DNA from: Burkholderiales bacterium
GTDB lineage: Bacteria; Pseudomonadota; Gammaproteobacteria; Burkholderiales; SG8-41
DNA length: 64,000 nucleotides
NCBI GenBank assembly: GCA_043743335.1
Contig: JAYTWR010000083.1
Location: 29,371-93,370, forward strand
Reading direction: 5' to 3'
Part shown: piece after piece, positions 14,065 to 57,569 of the stretch
How the letters are laid out: the number at the start of each line of letters is the position of its first letter
Position numbering within the stretch: position 1 is the first letter of the stretch
Translations under genes and position numbers: made by a program
The notes under the pieces: generated by a model
Seen by the model: the letters and a program-made list of their open reading frames with translations, nothing else
The model's database searches: none
What the model was told of the DNA's origin: nothing

Positions 14065-17669
<3,605 letters not shown>

Positions 17670-17712
17670 GATTTAAATCTCTATAGAACTAGTAATAAGC
17701 AAGGTTACTGTC

Positions 17713-17721
17713 TGTGGATAA
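17713..17721 (-). promoter_or_regulatory. DnaA box (perfect TTATCCACA on minus strand)
   Basis: Plus strand reads TGTGGATAA. Confidence 0.7.
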
Positions 17722-17845
17722 CTATAAAAACACTTTAAAATCAATTAGTTAATGAGTATATTGGGTGCGGGATAAGTCAGCGAAATGCGTTGCATACATT
17801 GTTCATGGATTTAAGAAAAAACACATCGGGTTAGTTACTCACAAT

Positions 17846-17854
17846 TTATCCACA
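17846..17854 (+). promoter_or_regulatory. DnaA box (perfect TTATCCACA)
   Basis: TTATCCACA lies 6 nt downstream of the dnaA stop codon. Confidence 0.7.
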
Positions 17855-17859
17855 GCATA

Positions 17860-19248
17860 TCAACAACGCAACACTTTGAGTAAAGAAGAGATATCCCGGC
17901 TGATATCGCCATTGGTGGTTTTCAAATCGGTAATCTTGCGACAGGCGTGTAAGACAGTGGTGTGATCGCGGCCGCCAAAAGCATCACCGATGTCGGGCAA
18001 ACTGAGTTGGGTAAGTTCTTTGGCCAGCGCCATAGCCACTTGACGCGGCCGGGCAATGGCACGCGTGCGTTTCTTGGAATACATTTCAGACACTTTGATC
18101 TTGTAGTAATCCGCCACCGTCTTTTGAATGTTTTCTATGGATATCTGACGGTTTTGTACGGCCAGTAAATCGCGTAATGCTTCACGGCAAAGATCGACAG
18201 ATATGGCGTGGCCGGTGAAGCGGGCATACGCCAATATGCGTTTGAGGCCGCCTTCCAGTTCGCGCACATTGGATTGAATGTGCTTGGCGAGAAAGAATGC
18301 AGCGTCTTCAGGCAGCTTGACCGCTTCGAGCTCGGCTTTTTTGAGCAGAATGGCCACACGCATTTCTAATTCAGGGGGCTCGACCGCGACAGTAAGGCCC
18401 CAGCCAAAACGTGAAATCAGGCGGTTTTCCATACCGGTGATTTCTTTGGGGTAGGTGTCGCAGGTAATCACGACCTGTTTGTGGGATTCAATCAGCGCAT
18501 TAAAAGCGTAAAAGAATTCTTCCTGCGTGCGGTTTTTACCACTAAAAAACTGGATATCGTCCACCAACAGCATATCCAGCGAATGGTAATAACGCTTGAA
18601 ATCGTCGAAAGCCTTATGCTGATAGGCGCGCACTACGTCGGACACATATTGTTCCGCGTGGATGTAGCGCACCTTGCCTTGCGGATGATGTTCGCGAAAA
18701 TAATTGCCGATGGCGTGCGCCAAGTGTGTTTTACCCAGCCCTACGCCGCCATAAATAAAGAGCGGGTTATACGCAGTGCCCGCTTTTTCAGCGACTTGTG
18801 CGGCCGCGGCGCGAGCGAGTTCGTTGGCCTTGCCAGTAACAAAACGCTCAAAGGTGAATGCCGGGTTGAGGCGCGCAAGATCTCGCGGCAATACCGTGGG
18901 CTTGGCTGCTGCGACGGCGGGCGCTCGGACAGTTTGAGCAGCGATGGTGGGTGCAGTACCTGACGCCCTTTCTGAAGCGACAGAATAACGATCCGGCGCG
19001 ACGAGCGCTTTATCCGCTAACAATAGGTTTATGGCTACAGCTTTGCCGGCCTGCGCTTGAGCGAGTTCGTGGATACGCGAGAGAAACTTGTCGCGGATCC
19101 ACTGCAGGACAAAACGGTTCGGGGCAACGATCGTAATGTCGCCGACTTCGTTGACCTCAACCGCCAACGGTTTAATCCATGTGATGAATTGTTGTGCGGG
19201 GAGTTCTTTTTCAAACTGCGACAGACAATCACGCCAAAAAGTGTTCAT
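17860..19248 (-). CDS. dnaA: Chromosomal replication initiator DnaA
   Basis: 462 aa. AAA+ Walker [11 protein letters not shown], box VII/VIII, and the C-terminal DNA-binding helix ([15 protein letters not shown]). Confidence 0.95.
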
Positions 19249-19476
19249 GGTTTACGGGGAGTCAGCAAACACTTGGGTAGCGGATCGTCGAGAAGTTTAG
19301 CGTTCGAGTGGTCGGTTTCTGCAGCGGCGGACGAAGCAGAGGAAGCCGGACAGAAAAACAGAGGCGAGAAGCACGTGAGAAGCACACGAAACTAATGCAA
19401 CCCAAAACGGCAAAACACAAAGGCTGTCACCGAACACACCCGTGACTGAACGCAATTTTACGTGGTTTGAAGCGAG

Positions 19477-19485
19477 TTATCCACA
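19477..19485 (+). promoter_or_regulatory. DnaA box (perfect TTATCCACA) in the dnaA-rpmH intergenic region
   Basis: Exact 9-mer, 229 nt upstream of the dnaA start codon. Confidence 0.65.
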
Positions 19486-19600
19486 AGGGTTTTGCCCTGT
19501 GAATTTGCGGGGTGAAACAGGTAGCGGTTCTGGTACGCCATCGGAGAACCTTCCAGCAGTTAACCCGCGTAGTCGTAGACGCTGGCCAGCGTTGTTTTTA

Positions 19601-19630
19601 TTGACAAATAACACCAAAATAAGGTGTAAT
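19601..19630 (+). promoter_or_regulatory. Candidate sigma70 promoter upstream of rpmH
   Basis: TTGACA (19601-19606), 18-nt spacer, TGTAAT (19625-19630). It sits ~170 nt upstream of the rpmH ATG, so the assignment is tentative. Confidence 0.3.
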
Positions 19631-19798
19631 CACCGGTTTTCTCTGAGCCAAAAGCACAGGGCGCAATACTCGGCTCGGCTCGGCGCTGGGCGCGCGTCAC
19701 CAGCGGACGGCTATGGTGCTTTGCACACCCAGTGTGCGAGGGGTGTAGAGAAAAGCCCGAAGAAAGCACTTCATTTTGATAGACAGGATAATTTCGCC

Positions 19799-19933
19799 AT
19801 GAAAAGAACCTTCCAACCATCCAAGATTAAACGCGCCCGCACGCACGGTTTCCGTGCCCGCATGAAAACGGCCGGTGGCCGCGCTGTCATCCGCGCCCGC
19901 CGGGCCAAAGGTCGCGCCGTATTGTCAGCCTGA
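19799..19933 (+). CDS. rpmH: 50S ribosomal protein L34
   Basis: 44 aa, [48 protein letters not shown] lies 11 nt upstream. The 163-aa track ORF is an upstream read-through artefact. Confidence 0.95.
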
Positions 19934-19973
19934 CATGGGTTACGGTGGTGGTCGCTGGATGTAACATAAGCTA

Positions 19974-20390
19974 TTGTTTTTATTGATAATAGTGGAACAA
20001 AAGATACGGCTGTCGTGGGCTAAACCGCATCCTCGCAAGCTGACAAAGGCCGGCGAATTCAAAGCCGTGCTGGCAGCGGAAGGTCGGCTGTCAGGAAAAA
20101 ATTTTCTTCTACGAGCGGGCGTAAATGCGCTACCAGCGGCACGGCTGGGCTTGATCGCGAGCCGCAAAGCGTCAAAACGGGCCGTGGACCGTAACCGCGG
20201 TAAACGCTTGGCGCGCGAAGCTTTCAGAGCCGCGCGCAGTACGCTGCCGGCGGTGGATATGGTGGTGCAGCTAAAGAATGATTTGCGCAATTCCGGCAAC
20301 GGGGCATTGCGCCAAGAGTTGGAGCGTTTGCTGCGTGATTTGGGCGCGCGTTTTGGCGACCGGCCGCGCGGTGGCACCAGCGCAAGCTAA
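19974..20390 (+). CDS. rnpA: RNase P protein component
   Basis: Basic protein with the RnpA-like core (LIASRKASKRAVDRNRGKRLAREAFR), in the canonical position after rpmH. The start codon is uncertain (TTG 19974 or GTG 19992). Confidence 0.8.
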   Translation: MFLLIIVEQKIRLSWAKPHPRKLTKAGEFKAVLAAEGRLSGKNFLLRAGVNALPAARLGLIASRKASKRAVDRNRGKRLAREAFRAARSTLPAVDMVVQLKNDLRNSGNGALRQELERLLRDLGARFGDRPRGGTSAS

Positions 20391-20432
20391 CGATAAACGA
20401 TAAACAATAAAAGATCGCGAATAAGCAAGACC

Positions 20433-22133
20433 ATGGATACGCAGCGGCTCATATTGTTTTTTGTGTTGGTGTTTTCCACCTTTATGCTAGTGGAAGGCTG
20501 GCAGCGTGATCAAAAGCTGTCACAGCCGAGCATCTCGCAACCTGCTGGGAAGGGTGTCGCAGACGGGAAATCCACCGGTGGTATCCCGGTGCCAGCAGCC
20601 CCGGCATCCGCAACCCCTACACCGGCCGTCCCGACGGCTCCAGGGGCAACGGCAGGCGCCGTCCCGGCCGCCGCGTTGGTTGCGGGCGGGGAGATCATCA
20701 AAATCGAAACAGACGTGTTGCGGGTGGAGCTCAGCACCAAGGGCGGCGATATTCGTCGGCTGGAATTGACTCAACATAAAGGCACGCTGGATAAAAACAA
20801 GAATTTCGTTTTATTTCAAAGCCTTGCAGATCATACCTATATCGCGCAATCGGGCTTGATCGGGCAGGAAGGCTTGCCGGATCACCGCACGACCTATACC
20901 GCGTCGGCGCGCGAATATAAACTGGCAGACGGTGCTCCGGCGCTCGAAGTCCGACTCGAAGCGCCGGAAAGCAATGGCATCAAAACCGCACAAATCTATA
21001 AATTTACGCGCGGTAGCTACGTAATCGATGTGGCCTATGAAATCACCAACGGCGGCGACAAAGCGATACAGCCGCACGGTTATTTCCAGTTGGTGCGCGA
21101 CCGTAAGCCGCCGGATGGTGATTCGGCTATGCTGCCCACGTATACCGGGGCGGCGGTGTACACCAACGGCGAAAAATTCCAAAAAGTGGCGTTCGACGAT
21201 ATCGACAAAGGCAAAACGCCGTATGCTAAGTCCAGCCAGACCGAAGGTTGGGTGGCCATTGTGCAGCATTATTTCCTGGGCGCATTTTTGCCCAAGGATA
21301 AAGCGCCGCGCGAATTTTCTACGCTTAAACTTGAGAACGGTTTGTATCTGGCGCGGGTGCTTGTGGCCGGGGCTGCCGTCGAGCCGGGCAAGCAGGGGAG
21401 TGTCAGCAGCGCGTTGTATGCCGGTCCGCAGGATACAGAGACGCTGAAAAAGCTGGCACCGGGCCTCGACTTGGTGGTGGATTTTGGCATTCTGACGGTG
21501 ATAGCCGTGCCGCTCTTTATGGTACTGAGCTGGATTCATGAGTGGGTCGGCAACTGGGGCATCGCGATTATTCTGTTGACGGTGTTGATCAAAGCCATTT
21601 TTTACCCGCTGCAAGCAGCCAGCTATAAGGCCATGGCCAAGATGAAAGTCATCGCGCCCAAGATGCAGCAGTTGAAAGAGCGCTACGGTGACGACAAGCA
21701 GCGCATGCAAAAAGCCATGATGGAGTTGTACCAGAAGGAAAAAGTTAATCCCATGGCGGGTTGTCTGCCAATCGTGGTGCAAATGCCTGTTTTTATTGCA
21801 CTTTATTGGGTAATTCTGGCATCGGTGGAGCTGCGCCACGCGCCGTTTTACGGCTGGATCCACGACTTGTCGGCCATTGATCCGTGGTACGTGCTGCCGG
21901 TGCTGATGGGCGCGTCCATGATTATCCAGACCCGGCTCAACCCGGAGCCGCCGGATCCGGTGCAGGCCAAGGTGATGAAAATCATGCCTATCGCCTTTAG
22001 TGTGTTTTTCTTCTTTTTCCCGGCCGGGTTGGTGTTGTATTGGCTGGTGAACAATATTCTGTCCATCGCCCAGCAGTGGCAGATCAACCGTGTCATCGAA
22101 GGCGGCAGCCAGAAGCCTGTCGCTAAGGCGTGA
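20433..22133 (+). CDS. yidC: Membrane protein insertase YidC
   Basis: 566 aa with an N-terminal TM, a large periplasmic domain and the conserved C-terminal 5-TM core (NPMAGCLPIVVQMPVFIALYWV). Confidence 0.95.
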   Translation: MDTQRLILFFVLVFSTFMLVEGWQRDQKLSQPSISQPAGKGVADGKSTGGIPVPAAPASATPTPAVPTAPGATAGAVPAAALVAGGEIIKIETDVLRVELSTKGGDIRRLELTQHKGTLDKNKNFVLFQSLADHTYIAQSGLIGQEGLPDHRTTYTASAREYKLADGAPALEVRLEAPESNGIKTAQIYKFTRGSYVIDVAYEITNGGDKAIQPHGYFQLVRDRKPPDGDSAMLPTYTGAAVYTNGEKFQKVAFDDIDKGKTPYAKSSQTEGWVAIVQHYFLGAFLPKDKAPREFSTLKLENGLYLARVLVAGAAVEPGKQGSVSSALYAGPQDTETLKKLAPGLDLVVDFGILTVIAVPLFMVLSWIHEWVGNWGIAIILLTVLIKAIFYPLQAASYKAMAKMKVIAPKMQQLKERYGDDKQRMQKAMMELYQKEKVNPMAGCLPIVVQMPVFIALYWVILASVELRHAPFYGWIHDLSAIDPWYVLPVLMGASMIIQTRLNPEPPDPVQAKVMKIMPIAFSVFFFFFPAGLVLYWLVNNILSIAQQWQINRVIEGGSQKPVAKA

Positions 22134-22156
22134 TGTCGCTGACCCTGGGGCGGGCA

Positions 22157-22172
22157 TGTTTCACGTGAAACC
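22157..22172. promoter_or_regulatory. parS: parS centromere-like site (TGTTTCACGTGAAACC)
   Basis: 15/16 match to the palindromic parS consensus TGTTNCACGTGAAACA. The flanking GCAT/ATGC extends the dyad. It ends 1 nt before the mnmE ATG. Confidence 0.8.
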
Positions 22173-23546
22173 ATGCCGACGCCCCTTCAGCCCAGCCATG
22201 ACAGTATAGCGGCCATAGCCACTGCGCCGGGCCGCGCGGGCATCGGCGTCGTCAGAGTGTCTGGCAAATCGCTGGCGGCGCTGGCGCTGGCGCTTTGCGG
22301 AAAGTCTTTGCCGCCGCGCCAAGCGATTCTCAGTGACTTCAAAGACGGGCAGGGCACCGCTATCGATCAAGGCCTAGCGCTTTTTTTCCCTGCGCCACGG
22401 TCCTACACCGGTGAAGACGTGCTTGAACTGCAAGGCCATGGCGGCCCGGTGGTGCTGCAGCGGGTGCTCAAGCGCTGTCTGGAATTAGGTGCGCGGGTGG
22501 CCGAGCCTGGCGAATTCAGCAAGCGCGCCTTTCTCAACGGCAAAATGGATCTGGCGCAAGCAGAGGGCGTGGCCGACCTTATTGATGCGGCGACCGAGCA
22601 GGCCGCCCGCTGCGCCAACCGCTCCATCCAGGGCGAGTTTTCGGCGGCGGTGCATGCTGTCGCAGACGGGCTGACCGAACTGCGTGCGCTGACCGAGGCC
22701 ACGCTCGATTTCCCCGAAGAAGACATCGACACCGGCACCCGCAGCGACCAAGGGGTAAGGTTGATCGGGATTCGCGAAAAACTGGCGCGCCTGATCGCGG
22801 CCGCAAGCCAGGGTAGCCTGTTGCGGGAGGGTGCGGTGGTGGTGCTGGCGGGGCAGCCGAACGCGGGTAAATCCAGCTTGCTGAATCGGCTAGCGGGCGA
22901 GGAAATCGCCATCGTCACCGATATCCCCGGTACCACGCGCGACGCCATACGCCAGAGCATTAACTTAGGTGGCGTGCCAGTGCATATCGTTGATACCGCA
23001 GGCTTGCGCGAATCCGCCGATCCAGTAGAACAAATCGGCATTGCCCGCACCTGGGCGGCAATAGCCCAGGCCGACCTAGCGGTGTTGGTGATTGACGCCA
23101 CGCAAGGCGAAACCGAAGCCGATCGCGCCATACTGGCGCAACTCCCGCCAAGCCTGCCGTGCCTGCGCGTCTATAACAAAGCGGATTTGGTGGATTTGGT
23201 GGATCGGGCGAGTGCAGCAGCGCGCCCCAGTGCAGGGGTGGTCACCCTGTCTGCGAAAACCGGCGTGGGCTTGGATGGTTTTCGAGCAGCCTTGAGCGTG
23301 GCTATCGGCTGGCGCGGCGACCTAGAAGACGGAGGCGGAGGCGTGTTTATGGCGCGCACCCGACATCTGGCTGTGCTGCGGCTGGCCGAAGCGGGCCTGG
23401 CGCGCGCGGCCGACCAAAGCGGCCAGCAAGAACTCTTCGCCGAAGAACTGCGCGCGGCCCATCAAGCCTTGATGTCCATTACCGGCGAAGTCACTGCCGA
23501 CGATCTGCTCGGCGAAATATTCTCGCGTTTTTGCATCGGCAAGTAG
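22173..23546 (+). CDS. mnmE: tRNA modification GTPase MnmE
   Basis: 457 aa. [23 protein letters not shown]-terminus, G-domain [12 protein letters not shown] / DTAGLR / NKADL, C-terminal CIGK. Confidence 0.95.
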
Positions 23547-23563
23547 AAAGCGTTGTACGCCGA

Positions 23564-23579
23564 TGTTCCACGTGGAACA
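23564..23579. promoter_or_regulatory. parS: parS centromere-like site (TGTTCCACGTGGAACA, perfect palindrome)
   Basis: Perfect 16-mer, within a 20-bp perfect palindrome GATGTTCCACGTGGAACATC (23562-23581), in the mnmE-mnmG spacer. Confidence 0.85.
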
Positions 23580-23652
23580 TCACCGAATTTTCAGCTATCC
23601 GCGCGCGCGCGAATTCGCTATAATGCGTACCCTATCGCAGCCCGATAAAATA

Positions 23653-25545
23653 ATGCAACTAATTGATTTATATGATGTTATAGTCGTTGGTGGAGGGCAC
23701 GCCGGGGCCGAGGCCGCACTCGCGGCCGCGCGCATGGGCTGCAACACGCTGCTGCTCACCCACAGTATCGAAACGCTGGGGCAGATGTCGTGCAACCCCT
23801 CCATCGGCGGCATCGGCAAAGGGCACTTGGTGAAGGAAGTCGATGCGCTGGGCGGGGCCATGGCAGCGGCCACCGACGAAGCCGGCATCCAGTTTCGCAT
23901 CCTCAATTCGCGCAAGGGCCCGGCGGTGCGCGCCACGCGAGCGCAGGCCGACCGCGTGCTGTATCGCAAAGCCCTGCGCGAACGGTTGGAGAATCACCCG
24001 AAGCTTAAAATTTTCCAGCAAGCCGTTGATGACCTGATTCTGGAGGGTGACAAAGTCACCGGTGTCATTACCCAAATCGGCGTCAAGTTTCACGCGCGAG
24101 CGGTGGTCCTGACGGCGGGCACCTTCCTCGCGGGCAGGGTGCATGTGGGGTTGCAAAATCACCCAGCGGGCCGCGCTGGCGATCCGCCCGCGCTCACGCT
24201 CGCACAGCGCCTGCGCGAACTGAATCTCGGGGTCGGGCGTTTGAAAACCGGCACGCCGCCGCGCATCGATGGTCGCAGCATTGATTTCAGTGTGATGCAA
24301 GAACAACCGGGCGACAATCCCGCGCCGGTGTTTTCCTTCATGGGCAACCGCGCGCAACACCCGCAACAACTGCCGTGCTGGATCACCCACACGCACGAAG
24401 GCACGCATGACATTATCCGCGCCGGGCTGGATCGTTCGCCATTATTTACCGGCGTAATCGAAGGCATAGGCCCGCGCTACTGCCCGTCGATAGAAGACAA
24501 AATCACGCGCTTCGCCGACAAAACCGGGCACCAGATTTTTCTGGAACCCGAGGGCCTGACCGTACACGAGTTCTACCCTAACGGCATTTCCACCAGCTTG
24601 CCCTACGATGTGCAGTACGCGCTGGTGCGCTCAATCAGGGGCCTCGAAAATGCGCACCTCACGCGCCCTGGCTATGCCATTGAATACGATTATTTTGATC
24701 CGCGCGGCTTGAAAAGCTCGCTGGAAACCAAGGCGCTATCAGGCCTATTTTTCGCCGGGCAAATCAACGGTACCACGGGCTACGAAGAGGCCGCCGCGCA
24801 AGGCCTGCTCGCGGGCCTGAATGCCGCACGCCACGTGCAGGAGCGCGAAGCTTGGTGCCCGAAACGCAATGAGGCCTATCTCGGCGTGCTGGTCGATGAC
24901 TTAATTACGCGCGGCGTGTCGGAGCCGTATCGCATGTTCACCAGCCGCGCCGAATATCGTTTGTCACTACGCGAAGACAACGCCGATTTGCGCCTCACCG
25001 AAATCGGTCGCCAACTGGGTTTGGTGAACGACGCGCGCTGGGCTGCCTTCGAACAAAAACGCGAAGCCATTGCGCGGGAACAGGAGCGGCTGAAAGCCAC
25101 GTGGGTGAATCCGCGCGTCGTCGATGAGGCCGCAGCACACCGCGTGCTGGGCCAAGCCATGGAGCGCGAATACCCGTTACTGGATTTGTTGCGCCGCCCG
25201 GATGTGACCTACAGCGCGCTGATGACCTTGCCCGGCGCCGGTACGGGCGTGGCAGATGCGCAGGTTGCCGAGCAAGTGGAAATTCAGGCCAAGTATCAGG
25301 GCTACATCGAACGCCAGCGCGAAGAAATCGAGCGCAGCGCGCAGCAGGAAGACACACGCTTGCCGCAAGACATTGATTACAAAAAGATTTCTGGGCTTTC
25401 GATAGAGGCGCAGCAAAAGCTCACCAAACACCAACCGGAAACCTTGGGTCAGGCCGCGCGCATTTCCGGCATTACGCCGGCGACGATTTCAGTGTTGATG
25501 GTGTACGCCAAGCGCGGATTTGCCGGGCAGCGTAAAACGGCATGA
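23653..25545 (+). CDS. mnmG: tRNA uridine 5-carboxymethylaminomethyl modification enzyme MnmG (GidA)
   Basis: 630 aa from ATG 23653 ([29 protein letters not shown]), which matches the usual spacing before the FAD-binding GGGHAG. Track start 23563 lies inside parS, and ATG 23623 overlaps a TATAAT box. Confidence 0.9.
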
Positions 25546-26168
25546 GCGCCGCTGTGACGTTGCAAGATGGGCTTCAGCGCCTCAACCTCACCTTGCCTGA
25601 CGCCGCGCAGCAAAAGCTGCGGGATTACCTCGCGCTGGTGCAAAAGTGGAACAAGGTCTACAACCTGACGGCAGTGCGCGACGCCGAAAAAATGCTCACG
25701 CACCATCTGCTCGATAGTTTGGCCGTCGTGCCGCACGTGGCGCACGCCAAAACCCTGCTGGATGTCGGCAGCGGCGCTGGCTTGCCGGGCATACCGCTGG
25801 CGCTGGCGCTGCCGGATTTGCAGGTGACGCTGCTCGACAGCAACCAAAAGAAGACCGCGTTTTTGCATCAGGCGGTCATTGAATTGCAACTCGCCAATGT
25901 GCAGGTGATGTGCGGGCGCGTAGAAAAAACTGAATTAAATCAATTAGTTGATGTGGTGATCTCGCGGGCGTTTGCGGATTTACCGGCGTTTGCCGCGCTG
26001 GCGGGTCGCTTCGTTGCGGCGGGCGGCACCTTACTCGCCATGAAGGGCGTCAACCCGCAGGACGAAATAGCGCAGTTGAATGCCGACTTTACGCTGGCCG
26101 GCGTCACCCCCATCACCGTACCCGGCCTTGATGCCGCGCGGCATCTGGTTTTTCTCAAAGCGGCGTAA
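25542..26168 (+). CDS. rsmG: 16S rRNA m7G527 methyltransferase RsmG (GidB)
   Basis: 208 aa. [19 protein letters not shown] motif [20 protein letters not shown] overlap with mnmG. Confidence 0.9.
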
Positions 26169-26173
26169 ACACC

Positions 26174-26965
26174 ATGGCACGCATACTCGCAATCACCAAT
26201 CAAAAAGGCGGTGTGGGCAAAACCACCACCAGCGTCAATCTCGCCGCCAGTCTTGCCGCAGCGAAGCAACGCGTGCTACTGGTGGATCTAGATCCGCAGG
26301 GCAACGCCACCATGGGCAGCGGCATCGACAAACGCGCGTTGACGGCGACGGTTTATCAAGTGCTGCTGGGCGAAAAAACGCTGGCAGAGGTGCGCGTGCT
26401 CTCGGGCAAACAGGAATACGACGTGGTGCCCGCCAATCGTGACCTCGCCGGTGCCGAAGTCGAAATGGTCGATATCGAGCACCGCGAAACGCGCCTCAAA
26501 ACCGCCATCGCAGCGCACGCGAGTGACTACGATTACGTGTTGATCGATTGCCCACCCGCGCTGAATTTACTTACGGTGAATGGTCTCACGGCAGCGCACG
26601 CGGTGATGATCCCCATGCAGTGCGAGTACTACGCGCTTGAAGGTTTGTCCGATCTGGTGCAGACCGTTAAAAAAGTGCGCGCGCATTTAAACCCCACACT
26701 CGAAATCGAAGGCCTGCTGCGCACCATGTTCGATCCGCGTAACACGCTCGCGCAGCAGGTGTCGCAGCAGTTGCTCGATCACTTTGGCGACAAGGTGTAT
26801 CGCACGGTGATCCCGCGCAACATCCGCTTGGCCGAAGCGCCCAGCCACGGCCTGCCGGTGATGCACTTTGACCGCGCGTCCAAGGGCGCCCAGGCGTACA
26901 TTGCGCTGGCGGGCGAAATGCTGAATCGCAACCGCGCTCCCACAACAGCAGCGGCGGCGGTTTAG
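26174..26965 (+). CDS. parA: Chromosome partitioning ATPase ParA (Soj)
   Basis: 263 aa with the deviant Walker A NQKGGVGKTTT. Confidence 0.9.
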   Translation: MARILAITNQKGGVGKTTTSVNLAASLAAAKQRVLLVDLDPQGNATMGSGIDKRALTATVYQVLLGEKTLAEVRVLSGKQEYDVVPANRDLAGAEVEMVDIEHRETRLKTAIAAHASDYDYVLIDCPPALNLLTVNGLTAAHAVMIPMQCEYYALEGLSDLVQTVKKVRAHLNPTLEIEGLLRTMFDPRNTLAQQVSQQLLDHFGDKVYRTVIPRNIRLAEAPSHGLPVMHFDRASKGAQAYIALAGEMLNRNRAPTTAAAAV

Positions 26966-26967
26966 TT

Positions 26968-27825
26968 ATGGCGAAACTCAAAGGCTTGGGGCGCGGTCTC
27001 GATGCGTTGCTCGGCGCAGATGAACCCGCCAAACCCGTGGTCGCCGCCGGCGACACGCAAAGTGAGTTAGCGGTTGATCTCTTGCAGCCCGGCAAATTCC
27101 AGCCGCGCAGCCGCATGGATCAAGAGGCGTTGAAATCGCTGGCCGAATCCATCAAAACCCAAGGCGTGATTCAGCCCATCCTGGTGCGCCCGGTGGCAGA
27201 GGGCCAATACGAAATCATCGCCGGCGAGCGCCGCTGGCGGGCCTCGCGTATGGCGGGTTTGCAAGCCGTGCCCGTGGTGATAAGAAATATTCCCGATAAT
27301 CAAGCACTTGCCGTAGCGCTGATTGAAAACATCCAGCGCGAAGATTTGAATCCGCTGGAGCAGGCGCTGGGCACACAGCGCCTCATCAACGAATTCGGCC
27401 TGACGCACCAAGCGGCCGCCGAAGCACTCGGCCGCTCGCGCACCGCCGTGACCAATCTATTAAGGCTGCTCGAACTCGCGCCGCCGGTGCGCGACTTGCT
27501 CGCCGACGGCAAGCTCGACATGGGCCATGCGCGCGCACTGCTGGCGTTACCCGCGCTGCGCCAGGTCGAACTCGCGAATGAAATCGATACCAAGGGCCTG
27601 ACCGTGCGCGACGTGGAAAAACGCGTCAGCGAGCTTATTTCCCGTCCCAAACCGCGTATCCCACGCGCCGTAGATCGCGACGTCGCCCGCTTGCAAGAAG
27701 ACCTCGCGCAAAAGCTCGGCACGGCGGTGAAAATCAAGCAAAAAAGCCAAGGGCGCGGCGCGTTGATTGTGGAATACGGGTCTCTCGATCAGTTGGACGG
27801 GTTAATCGAGAAGCTGCGGCGCTAG
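26968..27825 (+). CDS. parB: Chromosome partitioning protein ParB (Spo0J)
   Basis: 285 aa. ParB box IIAGERRWRAS and an HTH (LTHQAAAEALGRSRTAVTNLLRLL). Confidence 0.9.
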   Translation: MAKLKGLGRGLDALLGADEPAKPVVAAGDTQSELAVDLLQPGKFQPRSRMDQEALKSLAESIKTQGVIQPILVRPVAEGQYEIIAGERRWRASRMAGLQAVPVVIRNIPDNQALAVALIENIQREDLNPLEQALGTQRLINEFGLTHQAAAEALGRSRTAVTNLLRLLELAPPVRDLLADGKLDMGHARALLALPALRQVELANEIDTKGLTVRDVEKRVSELISRPKPRIPRAVDRDVARLQEDLAQKLGTAVKIKQKSQGRGALIVEYGSLDQLDGLIEKLRR

Positions 27826-49565: not shown

Positions 49566-54239
<4,674 letters not shown>

Positions 54240-54500
54240 AGGCAGCCTCAACAAATAATCCAATAAAATCAAATACTTAAGTGAACAATATTGCGCCGCC
54301 ACAAAAAAGCCGTGGCGGAAACAAAGTTTTAGGAGTGAAACCGTTTAAGTCTACCGGTACCAAGGCCTTGCTTCAATAGGGAATTTTGGGCCTTGGGATG
54401 CTGCTGCGTAGCGGGCACGGGTAGTACGTTTAAGGTGGGGGATTGCGGATGCTGCGGCCGCAGCATGTCGGCATGTCGGCGACGGCACTGAGCGCCTAGG

Positions 54501-54812
54501 CTAGACATGGGGCATGATTTTAAATCGGTGTTTCACGCAACCCTCACGCCCCGCTTGGGTTTTTAGCCGATGCGCCATGCTCTGCGCCGGGGTCGCGTTC
54601 TCGGGCAGGGTGCAGGTTCGCTACGCCGTTCACGCCAGCCCGGGTGGTGTGCGTCGCGCACCTGTGCGATCAGTGGTTCGATTTTCGCATCTTTGCACGC
54701 CAGAATGTTCGCCGCACTGGTGTAACCCGCGTCCGCGGTCAGTATCGTCACCTTGCCGCTGGTCTGCGGCTGGGCACACCATGCCGACTTTCAGCAGTTT
54801 TGCAATTGACAC
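54501..54812 (-). pseudogene. DDE transposase fragment (IS4/IS5 superfamily, IS1182-like), frameshifted and truncated
   Basis: Three frames each carry a piece: SIAKLLKVGMV.., TILTADAGYTSAANILACKDAKIEPLIAQVRDAHHPGW.., MAHRLKTQAGRE... Only ~100 codons remain, with no intact N- or C-terminus. Confidence 0.6.
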
Positions 54813-54834
54813 TGACCGCCCTGCTGTCTATTGT
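54806..54834 (+). promoter_or_regulatory. Sigma70-type promoter of the retron transcript
   Basis: TTGACA (54806-54811), 17-nt spacer, TATTGT (54829-54834). The predicted start near 54841 coincides with the left inverted repeat. Confidence 0.6.
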
Positions 54835-54838
54835 CACC

Positions 54839-55010
54839 ACAGCAGCACGCCTCAAGCCGATGCACGGTTGACTATTCTTGTGATACTGGCCGCGTGTCTC
54901 TGCGGGGTTACCCCGCAGATATGCACTACCGCACTACTCAGCGCATGAGCCGCGTTATGCGCGCATAAACACGCTCATGCAAGACCAGCGAAGTTGGGGC
55001 GTGCTGCTGT
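54839..55010 (+). ncRNA. msr-msd: Retron msr-msd non-coding RNA region (a2 repeat, branch G, msr hairpin, msd hairpin, a1 repeat)
   Basis: 17-nt inverted repeat ACAGCAGCACGCCTCAA (54839-54855) / TTGGGGCGTGCTGCTGT (54994-55010), 16 WC pairs plus 1 G-U. G54856 sits in an A-G-C context directly 3' of the left arm. Hairpin TCTGCGGGG-TTA-CCCCGCAGA (54899-54919). Composite hairpin 54943-54980 around the palindrome TTATGCGCGCATAA. The region is immediately upstream of, and co-oriented with, a retron-type RT. Confidence 0.7.
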
Positions 55011-55023
55011 TTTACCTGGGCCA

Positions 55024-56370
55024 ATGACGACACAACGCAATCGACACTTAGTCACGCTCGGCATGGCCGACGCCCTGCTCGCCGGGGCACGCCATCCTGT
55101 TTCTGCGCGTACGCGGTTGGAGCATGCGCTCGGTAGCCGTGCGCGTTGGGTTGGCAATCTCGCACGCACGCTGGTCAAGCGCTTTGCAGGCGACTGGCGA
55201 GATACGCAACGCGATAACTTGGCACGCGAGATTGAGGGGCTTCCTGCGTTCCAACGTGCGTGCCTAAGTGCGCGTCCCCCGCGCGTACGTCACATACCCG
55301 TAACGCCCTCACGCATGGCGTCGTTGCCTGTTGCGCTGATGGACTGCGTGGTTCCCGATTTGCCTACGCCGCGCGACGTTGCGCGCTGGCTCGACTTGAG
55401 TCTGGATGAATTGCTGTGGCTCACCGGCCCGTTGGAATATCCACTGCGCAATGACGCACCGGTCACCCACTATCAAACGCGCTGGGTACACAAGCGCAGC
55501 GGCGGCATGCGCTTGATCGAGATACCCAAGGTGCAATTGCGCGCGCACCAGCGCCGCTTGCTGCATCGTCTGCTGGATTATGTGCCTGTGCACGAGGCCG
55601 CGCATGGCTTTCGCCCACGGCATTCATGCGTCACCAACGCCCGCCCACACATGGGGCAAGCCGTGGTAGTGCGCATGGACCTCGAAGATTTTTTCGGCAG
55701 CATCGGTGGCGGCAAGGTCTACAAGACGTTCACTGCACTCGGCTACCCGGCTGCTGCAGCCACGGCGCTAACACGGCTCACCACCTGCGCCACACCGGCT
55801 GACGCGTTGGCCCCCACGCTGACCACGCTGGACTGGCACGCACGCAAGCGGCTGCAAGCGCCACACTTGCCGCAAGGCGCACCCACCTCACCCGCCCTGG
55901 CCAATTTATGCGCATTCAACTTTGATGTTCGTGTGCAAGCCTTGGCCGAGAAATTCAGTGCGCGTTACACACGCTATGCCGATGATTTAACGTTCTCCGG
56001 CAATGCGGAATTTCGCCATCGCGCACACGCACTGCAAGCGCGCGTCGCGGCCATTGCCACAGAAGAAGGCTTCCGCATTAACCATCGTAAAACCAAGGTT
56101 ATGCCATCCGCCACGCGTCAGCGTGTCACTGGCATCGTGGTCAATCGCACTACCAATATTGCGCGTGTCGATTTTGACCGGCTGAAGGCGACACTACACA
56201 ACTGCGCCAAACACGGGCCTGCCACTCAGTGCATGACTGATGTTTACACATTCAGGAATCACCTGGCCGGGCACATTGCCCATCTATCTGCGATACACCC
56301 CGTGCGCGGTGCACGGCTCAGGCAGATGTTCAGTCGCATATCATGGAGTCGTGGAATGGTGGATCACTGA
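55024..56370 (+). CDS. ret: Retron-type reverse transcriptase with N-terminal extension
   Basis: RT motifs in order: GGMRLIEIPK, AHGF, VTNARPH (NAxxH), VRMDLEDFFGSI, LPQGAPTSPALANL, YTRYADDLTFSG, INHRKTKVM, QRVTGIVVN. The track start (TTG 54994) lies inside the a1 repeat, so I use the first ATG (55024). ATG 55315 or 55339 are alternatives that would give a canonical ~340-350 aa RT. Confidence 0.85.
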   Translation: MTTQRNRHLVTLGMADALLAGARHPVSARTRLEHALGSRARWVGNLARTLVKRFAGDWRDTQRDNLAREIEGLPAFQRACLSARPPRVRHIPVTPSRMASLPVALMDCVVPDLPTPRDVARWLDLSLDELLWLTGPLEYPLRNDAPVTHYQTRWVHKRSGGMRLIEIPKVQLRAHQRRLLHRLLDYVPVHEAAHGFRPRHSCVTNARPHMGQAVVVRMDLEDFFGSIGGGKVYKTFTALGYPAAAATALTRLTTCATPADALAPTLTTLDWHARKRLQAPHLPQGAPTSPALANLCAFNFDVRVQALAEKFSARYTRYADDLTFSGNAEFRHRAHALQARVAAIATEEGFRINHRKTKVMPSATRQRVTGIVVNRTTNIARVDFDRLKATLHNCAKHGPATQCMTDVYTFRNHLAGHIAHLSAIHPVRGARLRQMFSRISWSRGMVDH

Positions 56371-56398
56371 AGGCTCCTCGCCGCAACCTCATTGACCG

Positions 56399-56668
56399 CT
56401 ATTGCGCCACAAACCGCTGCACCCGCTTGCCCGAGCGCACTTTGCCGGTGAACAAATAGCCGGGCGAATACGCCGCAGCGCAGTTCGAACGCGCAAAACG
56501 ACTGCTATCACCCAGACAGGCAATCAACCACGGAATGGTGTTTTCGCCCAGCCGCGGCACACGGTCCAGCAATTCACGGCGACCGCGCAAATTGTCATTG
56601 GATTCAACGCGTTGCTTAATTTTCTTACGCAGTTCGCTGATCTGCTGGGCGAGAAAAATTTCACGCAA
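56399..56668 (-). pseudogene. IS110-family transposase fragment (central/C-terminal piece only)
   Basis: The 89-aa ORF (QISELRKKIKQ..LLDRVPRLGENTIPWLIACLGDSSRFARSNCAAAYSPGY) is a degenerate match to the IS110 pattern L..IPG(I/V)G......L.A.(L/I)GD..RF.S....AAY.GL.P. The DEDD catalytic N-terminal domain is absent. It abuts the hemF stop. Confidence 0.5.
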
Positions 56669-57569
56669 CCCACTCCTTCGCTACCAAAAAGTTCTCATAC
56701 AACGCCGCCTCGCGCGACCCCGCTTCCGGCTTCCAGTCGTAACGCCAATTCACCACCGGGGGCAGCGACATGAGTATCGATTCGGCGCGTCCGCCGGATT
56801 GCAGCCCGAATAGCGTGCCGCGGTCGTAGACCAGGTTGAATTCAACATAGCGTCCGCGGCGGTAGGCTTGAAAATCACGTTCGCGCTCGCCGTAGGGCAG
56901 GTCGCGGCGGCGCTCGACGATGGGCGTGTAGGCCTTGAGAAAATGATCGCCCACACTTTGCATTAAGGCAAAGCAGGTGGCGAAATCGGGCGTGTGCAGA
57001 TCGTCGTAAAAAATGCCGCCGATGCCGCGTGGTTCGTTGCGATGCTTGAGATAAAAATACGCGTCGCACCACTTTTTGTATTTGGGGTGCAAATCAGCGC
57101 CGAACGGCGCCAACGCATCGCGGCAGGTTTGATGAAAGTGCTGCGCGTCTTCGACAAAGCCGTAATAAGGCGTTAAATCCATGCCGCCACCGAACCACCA
57201 CACCGCGTCAGCGCCGGGCTTCACCGCGCAAAAGAGCCGCACGTTCATATGCACTGTGGGCACCATGGGGTTGCGTGGGTGTAGCACCAACGACACGCCC
57301 ATCGCGTCGTACGAGCGGCCGGCGAGTTCAGGCCGTGTGGCGGAGGCCGACGGCGGCAGGCCGGGGCCATAAACATGCGAGAAGCCCACGCCCGCACGCT
57401 CGAACAGGGCACCGTCTTCCAGGATGCAGGTGACGCCGCCACCACCACCGTTGGCGGGCGGGCGTGTCCAAGCGTCGCGCGAGAAAGCTTTGCCGTCGCG
57501 CGCGCTTAAGTCATCAACGATGCGGGCCTGCAGGGATTCGAGATAGGTTTTTACGGGTGCGGTATCCAT
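56661..57569 (-). CDS. hemF: Oxygen-dependent coproporphyrinogen III oxidase
   Basis: 302 aa. [11 protein letters not shown] and [11 protein letters not shown] signatures. Confidence 0.95.

Follow-up and report, generated by a model that had tools for sequence, protein, structure and literature searches.

We analysed a 64,000-nucleotide stretch of a Burkholderiales bacterium genome (contig JAYTWR010000083.1 of assembly GCA_043743335.1, positions 29,371 to 93,370; hereafter the window, whose coordinates are used throughout). It carries at 54806-56370 a retron that a preliminary description, made from the letters alone, had called complete and of defence type. Based on our analysis, this locus is very probably a functional stand-alone retron consisting of an msr-msd non-coding RNA (ncRNA) gene and its own reverse transcriptase (RT), with no effector gene in cis. 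The reading is carried by an ncRNA whose helices covary across a large RT family, by two guanosines that are invariant at the predicted priming and template start positions, and by an RT that ranks with retron RTs in every comparison made. "Complete" stands in the classical sense, as msr, msd and RT are all present. In the modern classification, retrons are tripartite and comprise an ncRNA, an RT and an effector gene or fused domain (PMC7736814), and here the word does not hold, since an effector gene or recognisable fused effector domain appears, from the sequences compared, to be absent both at this locus and family-wide. The features of the cassette are as follows.

54806..54834, plus strand: sigma70-type promoter (-35 TTGACA at 54806-54811, spacer of 17 nt, -10 TATTGT at 54829-54834)
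54839..54855, plus strand: a2, 5' arm of the closing stem, ACAGCAGCACGCCTCAA, pairs with a1
54856, plus strand: predicted branching (priming) guanosine, context CAA-G-C
54857..54898, plus strand: variable msr part, a hairpin in most relatives and weakly structured here; length and sequence vary in the alignment
54899..54919, plus strand: near-invariant msr hairpin, TCTGCGGGG-TTA-CCCCGCAGA, identified by family conservation
54920..54942, plus strand: msr-msd linker, variable in the family alignment, holds the GCACTAC repeat
54943..54980, plus strand: msd template hairpin, outer stem 54943-54950 with 54973-54980, apical palindrome 54955-54968
54981..54993, plus strand: single-stranded 3' part of msd, ends in G54993, which opposes the branch G
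54994..55010, plus strand: a1, 3' arm of the closing stem, TTGGGGCGTGCTGCTGT, pairs with a2
55024..56370, plus strand: retron-type RT, 448 residues (RVT_1, PADLOC, PDB profile and AlphaFold2 model)

The non-coding RNA at the locus

The ncRNA element upstream of the RT gene spans 172 nt (54839-55010) and is closed by the 17-nt a2/a1 stem with 16 Watson-Crick pairs and one G-U pair. The individual elements listed in the preliminary description were all recovered in place, namely the TTGACA-17-TATTGT promoter, the inverted repeat with its pairing, G54856 in its A-G-C context, the tight hairpin at 54899-54919, the GCACTAC-C-GCACTAC direct repeat at 54923-54937 and the composite hairpin 54943-54950/54973-54980 enclosing the palindrome at 54955-54968. 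Only the distance from the repeat to the first ATG of the RT gene at 55024, given there as 14 nt, had to be corrected to 13 nt. Folded as RNA, 54839-55010 reached -79.4 kcal/mol (z = -4.8), and none of 200 shuffles was as good. Rfam searches of 54000-57000 with E values up to 10 returned neither a retron nor any other family, the one exception being a spurious match to an archaeal snoRNA at 54721-54781, and the whole window gave no match at gathering scores; the ncRNA is thus not a curated family. The GCACTAC direct repeat lies within the linker that varies across the family, is kept in no relative and is probably incidental.

The promoter was the only sigma70-like match in 54200-56800 (shuffle mean 0.9). 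A strict -35/-10 pair ending 3-11 nt upstream of a2 was present in 26 of 75 related loci, compared with at most one of 75 at each of nine control offsets. This conserved position supports transcription beginning at the first bases of the a2 arm, where we predict the transcript start (approximately 54839-54842).

Conservation and covariation across the family

To follow the element through its relatives, we used a genome scan that found the RT family in at least 600 species and from which 80 loci were kept for analysis. These come from at least nine phyla and include Beta-, Gamma- and Alphaproteobacteria, Myxococcota, Acidobacteriota, Planctomycetota, Verrucomicrobiota, Actinomycetota, Bacteroidota and Dormibacterota. 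A simple search for inverted repeats upstream of the RT gene found, in about half of the loci, arms of 14-22 nt spanning 150-180 nt, with a 5' arm ending in CAA followed by G and a 3' arm that begins with TTG and ends 2-55 nt before the RT start. Of the sequences obtained in this way, 31 were aligned as the seed of a covariance model. In this alignment A16, A17 and G18, the AAG that closes a2, are invariant and are followed by a variable hairpin, a CUCYNYGGGG-YUA-CCCCRNRG hairpin, a variable linker, a two-tier hairpin and an invariant G directly before a1. RNAalifold assigned 36 pairs to the seed alignment, 29 of them with compensatory changes.

The covariance model gave one full-length match, on the RT strand and just upstream of the RT gene, in 78 of the 80 loci, 47 of which had not contributed to the seed. 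The two misses were a locus without upstream DNA (L039) and one in which the RT start was not found (L080). Two further family loci, fetched separately, were also matched. Across 1.2 Mb of loci the sole other match was a weak reverse-strand echo of a palindrome, and 80 viral loci with other retron-like RTs gave no match. The ncRNA of the window scored 111 bits, with every helix intact.

In the alignment of 80 sequences, 94.7% of cells were paired, compared with 40-45% when partners were slid by 1-3 columns; double changes occurred in 33 of 36 pairs, and none of 500 shuffles reached the score. The covariation that the preliminary description had asked for in the a2/a1 pairing is present in full, as all 17 pairs show compensatory changes (94.5% of cells paired). 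The internal hairpins are likewise conserved upstream of homologous RT genes. For the msr hairpin at 54899-54919, the GGGG/CCCC core is invariant or nearly so, 99.4% of cells are paired and double changes are seen in five of eight pairs, and we consider this hairpin a likely RT recognition element from its conservation. The msd hairpin contains two family-conserved helices in which all 11 pairs show compensatory changes, with 88% and 96% of cells paired. The branch position is a G in 76 of 76 aligned sequences, and the opposing position, 54993, is a G in 79 of 79. This is in good agreement with known retrons, where a branch G in an xAGC context is found in validated examples (PMC6868368) and "two opposing G residues" are a feature of the ncRNAs (PMC7736814). 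The earlier proposal of templating from about 54993 fits these data, and G54993 is the predicted start point of complementary DNA (cDNA) synthesis.

The reverse transcriptase is a retron RT outside the typed groups

A protein search placed the RT in a dense family of relatives of about 445 residues that are 45-76% identical to it over their full length, most of which come from metagenome bins of Burkholderiales and from isolates, Paraburkholderia among them. The RT domain covers approximately residues 150-440 and contains the NAxxH, YADD and VTG motifs reported before, as NARPH (residues 205-209), YADD (318-321) and VTG (368-370), together with QGAPTSP (284-290). Three features are invariant in the 31 family members compared: the region X histidine, the region Y glycine and YADD. 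The N of region X is present in 16 of them and VTG in 17, the others carrying VNG, LTG or LAG. The window RT open reading frame (ORF) is intact, has the usual family length and keeps all invariant residues.

Pfam detected only RVT_1 (5.9e-26). With PADLOC, two untyped models came first, RT_other (1e-136, 455 bits) and RT_outgroup, which is labelled retron (8e-130, 432 bits), followed by RT_XIII in third place (3e-95, 318 bits) and then all other retron types, and the order RT_other, RT_outgroup, RT_XIII was found in 40 of 40 family members tested, those from Myxococcus and Pyxidicoccus included. The NCBIfam retron models scored 1e-54 to 1e-58, under their strict cut-offs, and the non-retron models gave 6e-17 for group II, 8e-12 for Drt2 and 4e-8 for Drt3a. 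A profile of 31 members searched against PDB matched the RTs of retrons Ec86, Ec67 and Ec78 at 1e-45 to 1e-35, compared with 1e-10 for a group II intron RT and 1e-7 for the defence-associated reverse transcriptase (DRT) DRT2. The AlphaFold2 model has a mean predicted local distance difference test (pLDDT) score of 89.7. Its best structural match in Foldseek is the Ec86 RT (E 5e-20, template modelling (TM) score 0.78-0.81), followed by Eco7, Eco2, Ec78, Ec83 and Eco8; TM scores against retron RT structures are 0.74-0.83 when normalised to the target, and diversity-generating retroelement (DGR) and group II RTs match more weakly by ten orders of magnitude. The expected grouping with retron RTs, and not with group II intron, DGR, abortive infection (Abi)/unknown group (UG) or CRISPR-associated RTs, was thus borne out by models, PDB profile and Foldseek alike, the last two placing retron RTs ahead by more than 10 orders of magnitude. 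Taken together, the model, profile and structure rankings point to a retron RT outside all 13 typed groups. The RT lineage itself is not new to databases, because the PADLOC hidden Markov models already describe the family at full length; our literature search found no paper characterising it.

The ATG at 55024 is backed as start codon by the family alignment and by the predicted first helix (residues 4-19). A public gene call of 435 residues (P0001) starts at Met14 (55063), and a 448-residue call in another assembly (P0121) matches 55024.

A family-specific N-terminal domain

Residues 1-80 of the AlphaFold2 model form a predicted five-helix bundle (pLDDT 87) with a conserved (L/I)AD(A)(L/M)LAG motif and invariant A17, L19, G21, R31 and W42. 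A Pro-rich linker follows (residues 81-112), and then come two conserved short helices at residues ~113-135 (116-134), in a stretch to which the type XIII RT model can also be aligned; in the predicted structure these read like a helix-turn-helix. The bundle had no match in Pfam and no relative in a PDB structure search (best E 6.4), which ruled it out as a known effector, and it does not look enzymatic. A profile of the N-terminal region searched against 1.84 billion representative proteins gave 903 matches, and most of the best 150 of these 903 were short. Nine short or shifted matches were inspected, and all were RT fragments, frameshifted copies or over-extended gene calls, so that an occurrence outside the RT context was ruled out among the odd-length or offset matches inspected. 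Because of this, the domain would seem, on sequence grounds, to be private to this RT family.

Gene neighbourhoods and the absent effector

We clustered all ORFs of at least 80 residues within 4 kb of the RT gene at 78 loci, and no cluster occurred in more than 10 of them. The largest, at 10 loci, consisted of sigma54 activators and histidine (sensor) kinases. These regulators, glutathione S-transferase (GST) genes and the genes in synteny among three Roseateles/Mitsuaria genomes were considered as partners and rejected as generic. DUF188/YaiI was rejected as too rare, since it adjoins the RT gene at only three of the 78 loci; at these it lies on the same strand beside the RT gene (L013:9373-9843, L018:9127-9588 and L029:7011-7463), in Oxalobacteraceae and Planctomycetaceae and hence in two phyla. 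Small ORFs of at least 25 residues within 600 nt of the RT gene included none common to the family loci.

Pfam annotation of the neighbourhoods of four members showed cytochrome oxidase, RND efflux, GntR-aminotransferase, EamA, dehydrogenase and similar unrelated housekeeping genes. Five inspected neighbourhoods contained no defence genes, an observation made by inspection and not by a statistical defence-island test. A search of 2.9 million viral contigs revealed no family member; the best matches were at most 38% identical and restricted to the RT domain. The label of a defence-type element given to the locus in the preliminary description therefore goes beyond the evidence: with housekeeping neighbours and no member in viral contigs, it is an assumption and not a result.

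Comparison with known retrons

The typed group closest to the window RT is type XIII (Mestre clade 10: Retron-Mxa1/Mx162, Mxa2/Mx65, Sau1/Sa163 and Nex2/Ne144). Both have an RT of about 430-490 residues that is extended at its N terminus (PMC6868368), sit among host genes and not in prophages, with synteny shared between related species (L027, L028 and L034), and carry the branch G in an xAGC context. What defines type XIII is a linked protein that combines a winged helix with a SWIM zinc finger (cluster 114), and a HEAT/ARM-repeat protein is usually present as well (PMC7736814), whereas the present family has no conserved winged-helix/SWIM or ARM-repeat neighbour. In the window, the CxCx10-14CxH motif is absent from every ORF of at least 150 residues, though the genome may carry an unlinked copy elsewhere. 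Further, the first ~100 residues of the RT do not align to the type XIII model, where the alignment starts at residue 107. Assigning the family to type XIII or to Mx65 was rejected, as myxobacterial members reach 520-551 bits with RT_other compared with ~320 for RT_XIII. Mx65 is reported to be 47% identical to Mx162 and would for this reason be expected to favour the type XIII model. One of these members, in Myxococcus qinghaiensis (L065:7989-9476), has the highest RT_other score seen (551 bits versus 323 for RT_XIII), a CAGC branch context and FAEPH in region X, and appears distinct from the classical Mx162 and Mx65 retrons.

In architecture, the family resembles the stand-alone (msr-msd)-RT cassettes of the Retron-Eco5/Ec107 branch of clade 2 and of clade 11, which likewise have an ncRNA and an RT and no associated gene (PMC7736814), and the same holds for two clades outside defence islands described by Millman et al. 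2020 (10.1101/2020.06.21.156273). Membership in the Ec107 branch was rejected, since the Ec107-like RT model scored only 1.5e-61. Clade 11, compared by its description only, is essentially actinobacterial, in contrast to the at least nine phyla found here. For stand-alone cassettes, Mestre et al. 2020 left as a question whether a partner acts in trans or the function is a different one (PMC7736814), and Millman et al. 2020 suggested non-defence functions for two retron RT clades that seldom lie near defence genes (10.1101/2020.06.21.156273).

The closest system in solved structure and in sequence is Retron-Eco1 (Ec86, type II-A3), with an identity of ~26% to the window RT. Its ncRNA follows the same logic, with a1/a2 arms, a branch G, hairpins in the msr and one in the msd, but its RT has 320 residues and no N-terminal bundle, and the retron is paired with a nucleoside deoxyribosyltransferase-like effector and borne on a prophage. 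Fused-effector retrons (I-C/Eco2 with Toprim, XI with a protease, XII with TIR) are likewise composed of one protein and one ncRNA. In these, however, the extra domain is C-terminal and recognisably enzymatic, whereas here it is N-terminal, small, all-helical and of no known fold.

Proposed mechanism and alternative explanations

In the mechanism we propose, a single transcript starting at approximately 54840 would carry the ncRNA followed by the RT ORF, in keeping with the motif and position of the promoter. Pairing of a2 with a1, which is visible in the covariation together with the two invariant G residues, would place G54856 opposite G54993. By analogy with retron biochemistry (PMC6868368), the RT would then bind the GGGG-UUA-CCCC hairpin at 54899-54919, prime from the 2'-OH of G54856 and copy the msd leftwards from ~54992 through the hairpin at 54943-80; reverse transcription would be expected to end somewhere in the linker at 54920-54942, and the template would be removed by RNase H. 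The product would be a branched multicopy single-stranded DNA (msDNA) of ~50-70 nt that forms a hairpin and remains attached to the RT. The resulting RT-msDNA particle is probably not the antitoxin of a neighbouring toxin, because the family has no accompanying toxin gene; it would either work with an unlinked partner or have a role of its own. The N-terminal helical domain is, speculatively, a candidate interaction surface. More broadly, one may picture a retron lineage that spans phyla, never makes use of a toxin next to it and whose RT-msDNA particle, organised by the N-terminal domain, is housekeeping-like and non-abortive or signals to an unlinked host factor, an idea that we put forward tentatively and regard as possible rather than probable.

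Several observations weigh against a functional stand-alone retron. The 17-nt repeat taken alone is barely beyond chance, as three of 60 dinucleotide shuffles of 54300-56700 match its score; it was counted as real because of its position and its conservation in relatives. The seed was picked for complementary arms, so that its pairing statistics are inflated, and the alignment used for counting pairs was fitted to the model. The 47 held-out loci nevertheless behave alike, and these loci and the internal helices, which were not selected for pairing, agree with the seed result. The predicted msDNA folded as DNA is not clearly above shuffles (z = -1.3), and our search found no report of an msDNA, a transcript or a phenotype for this locus or for any family member. 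Finally, debris of insertion sequences (IS) on both sides means that this particular copy could be a silent passenger.

The last point leads to the alternative of a decayed three-part retron, left inert after IS insertions or deletions on both sides removed its effector. Fragments of the IS1182 and IS110 families do flank the cassette, and a 13-nt direct repeat brackets a block of 2128 bp. But the effector is absent family-wide and not specifically in the window, which the mobile DNA does not explain, and both the RT ORF and the ncRNA of this copy are preserved as described above, so that decay is very unlikely. A better case can be made for a single-gene defence retron in which the five-helix domain is itself the effector and is restrained by the msDNA until phage infection. 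The domain is conserved, confidently folded and found fused to this RT family only, and retrons with fused effectors are an established category (PMC7736814). Against this stands the nature of the domain, an 80-residue helical bundle without Pfam or PDB match and without any hint of a nuclease, protease, TIR or membrane function; moreover, the family was not in defence islands in the contexts examined and is missing from the viral contigs. We therefore consider this explanation unlikely.

Two further readings question the retron assignment itself. With only an RT and an upstream ncRNA, the locus resembles DRT2 and DRT9, and might belong to a non-retron system of the DRT/UG kind that makes another product, such as concatemeric cDNA or a protein-primed homopolymer, and no 2'-5' branch. 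The models and structures of DRT2, DRT3 and DRT9 nevertheless score many orders of magnitude below retron RTs, and the ncRNA bears a retron signature: inverted repeats at its ends, two invariant Gs that face each other, hairpins in the msr and a single long one in the msd; we give this reading even less credence than decay. Alternatively, the structured element could be nothing but a regulatory 5' leader that acts on the stability or translation of the RT mRNA and is not reverse-transcribed, in keeping with its location between promoter and start codon and with a 3' arm ending 13 nt before the ATG. Across the family, however, the spacing between a1 and the start codon ranges from ~0 to over 100 nt and the RNA itself stays constant, and a leader would need neither invariant opposing Gs nor a long hairpin of retron geometry, which makes this the least probable explanation of all those considered here.

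In current retron biology, the RT-msDNA complex is the antitoxin or the sensor of an adjacent toxin. A family with a constrained ncRNA and an intact RT, without a linked effector and in a housekeeping setting, does not fit this model. Two studies of 2020, by Mestre et al. and by Millman et al., flagged orphan clades of this kind and left them unexplained. Our analysis makes the question testable by supplying an ncRNA model for the whole family, in which the priming and template positions are predicted exactly, a delimited protein domain specific to the family and a concrete locus. If the tentative picture of a lineage that never uses a neighbouring toxin is true, this would be a retron that does not act as a toxin-antitoxin defence module and a tractable system for the "orphan retron" question of 2020. 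The compact unit of RT and ncRNA might additionally interest those engineering retrons for genome editing, provided that DNA production is efficient.

Genomic context of the cassette

The cassette sits between gltB and hemF in an origin-proximal housekeeping region. Two transposase fragments lie beside it:

54566-54751, minus strand: IS1182-family transposase fragment, 59-68% identical to plasmid copies (E 1e-9)
56402-56668, minus strand: IS110-family C-terminal transposase fragment, 32% identical (E 2e-5)

An exact 13-nt direct repeat, TTTCACGCAACCC, is found at 54531-54543 and 56659-56671 and brackets the 2128-bp block with the retron and both IS fragments. Its right copy extends over the final codons and the stop codon of hemF, the chance expectation of the repeat is estimated at ~0.04 and the repeat may be the scar of an insertion. 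Metagenome contigs were scanned twice by exact pattern for an empty site, with no match. Horizontal transfer was not supported by composition, the GC content of the cassette being equal to that of its flanks. Together, this context suggests that the cassette arrived or was reshuffled with mobile DNA.

The putative replication-origin neighbourhood lies at 14065-27825 of the window, with gene names that are putative and read from ORF N-termini: gyrB, dnaN and dnaA on the minus strand, yidC, mnmE, mnmG, rsmG and parAB, and the atp operon. The retron lies ~35 kb from the putative dnaA, among core genes. A 15-nt inverted repeat, CGCGGTCAGTATCGT/GTGATACTGGCCGCG (54734-54748 and 54880-54894), straddles the retron promoter and joins the IS1182-family fragment to the variable msr part, with a score within the shuffle range.

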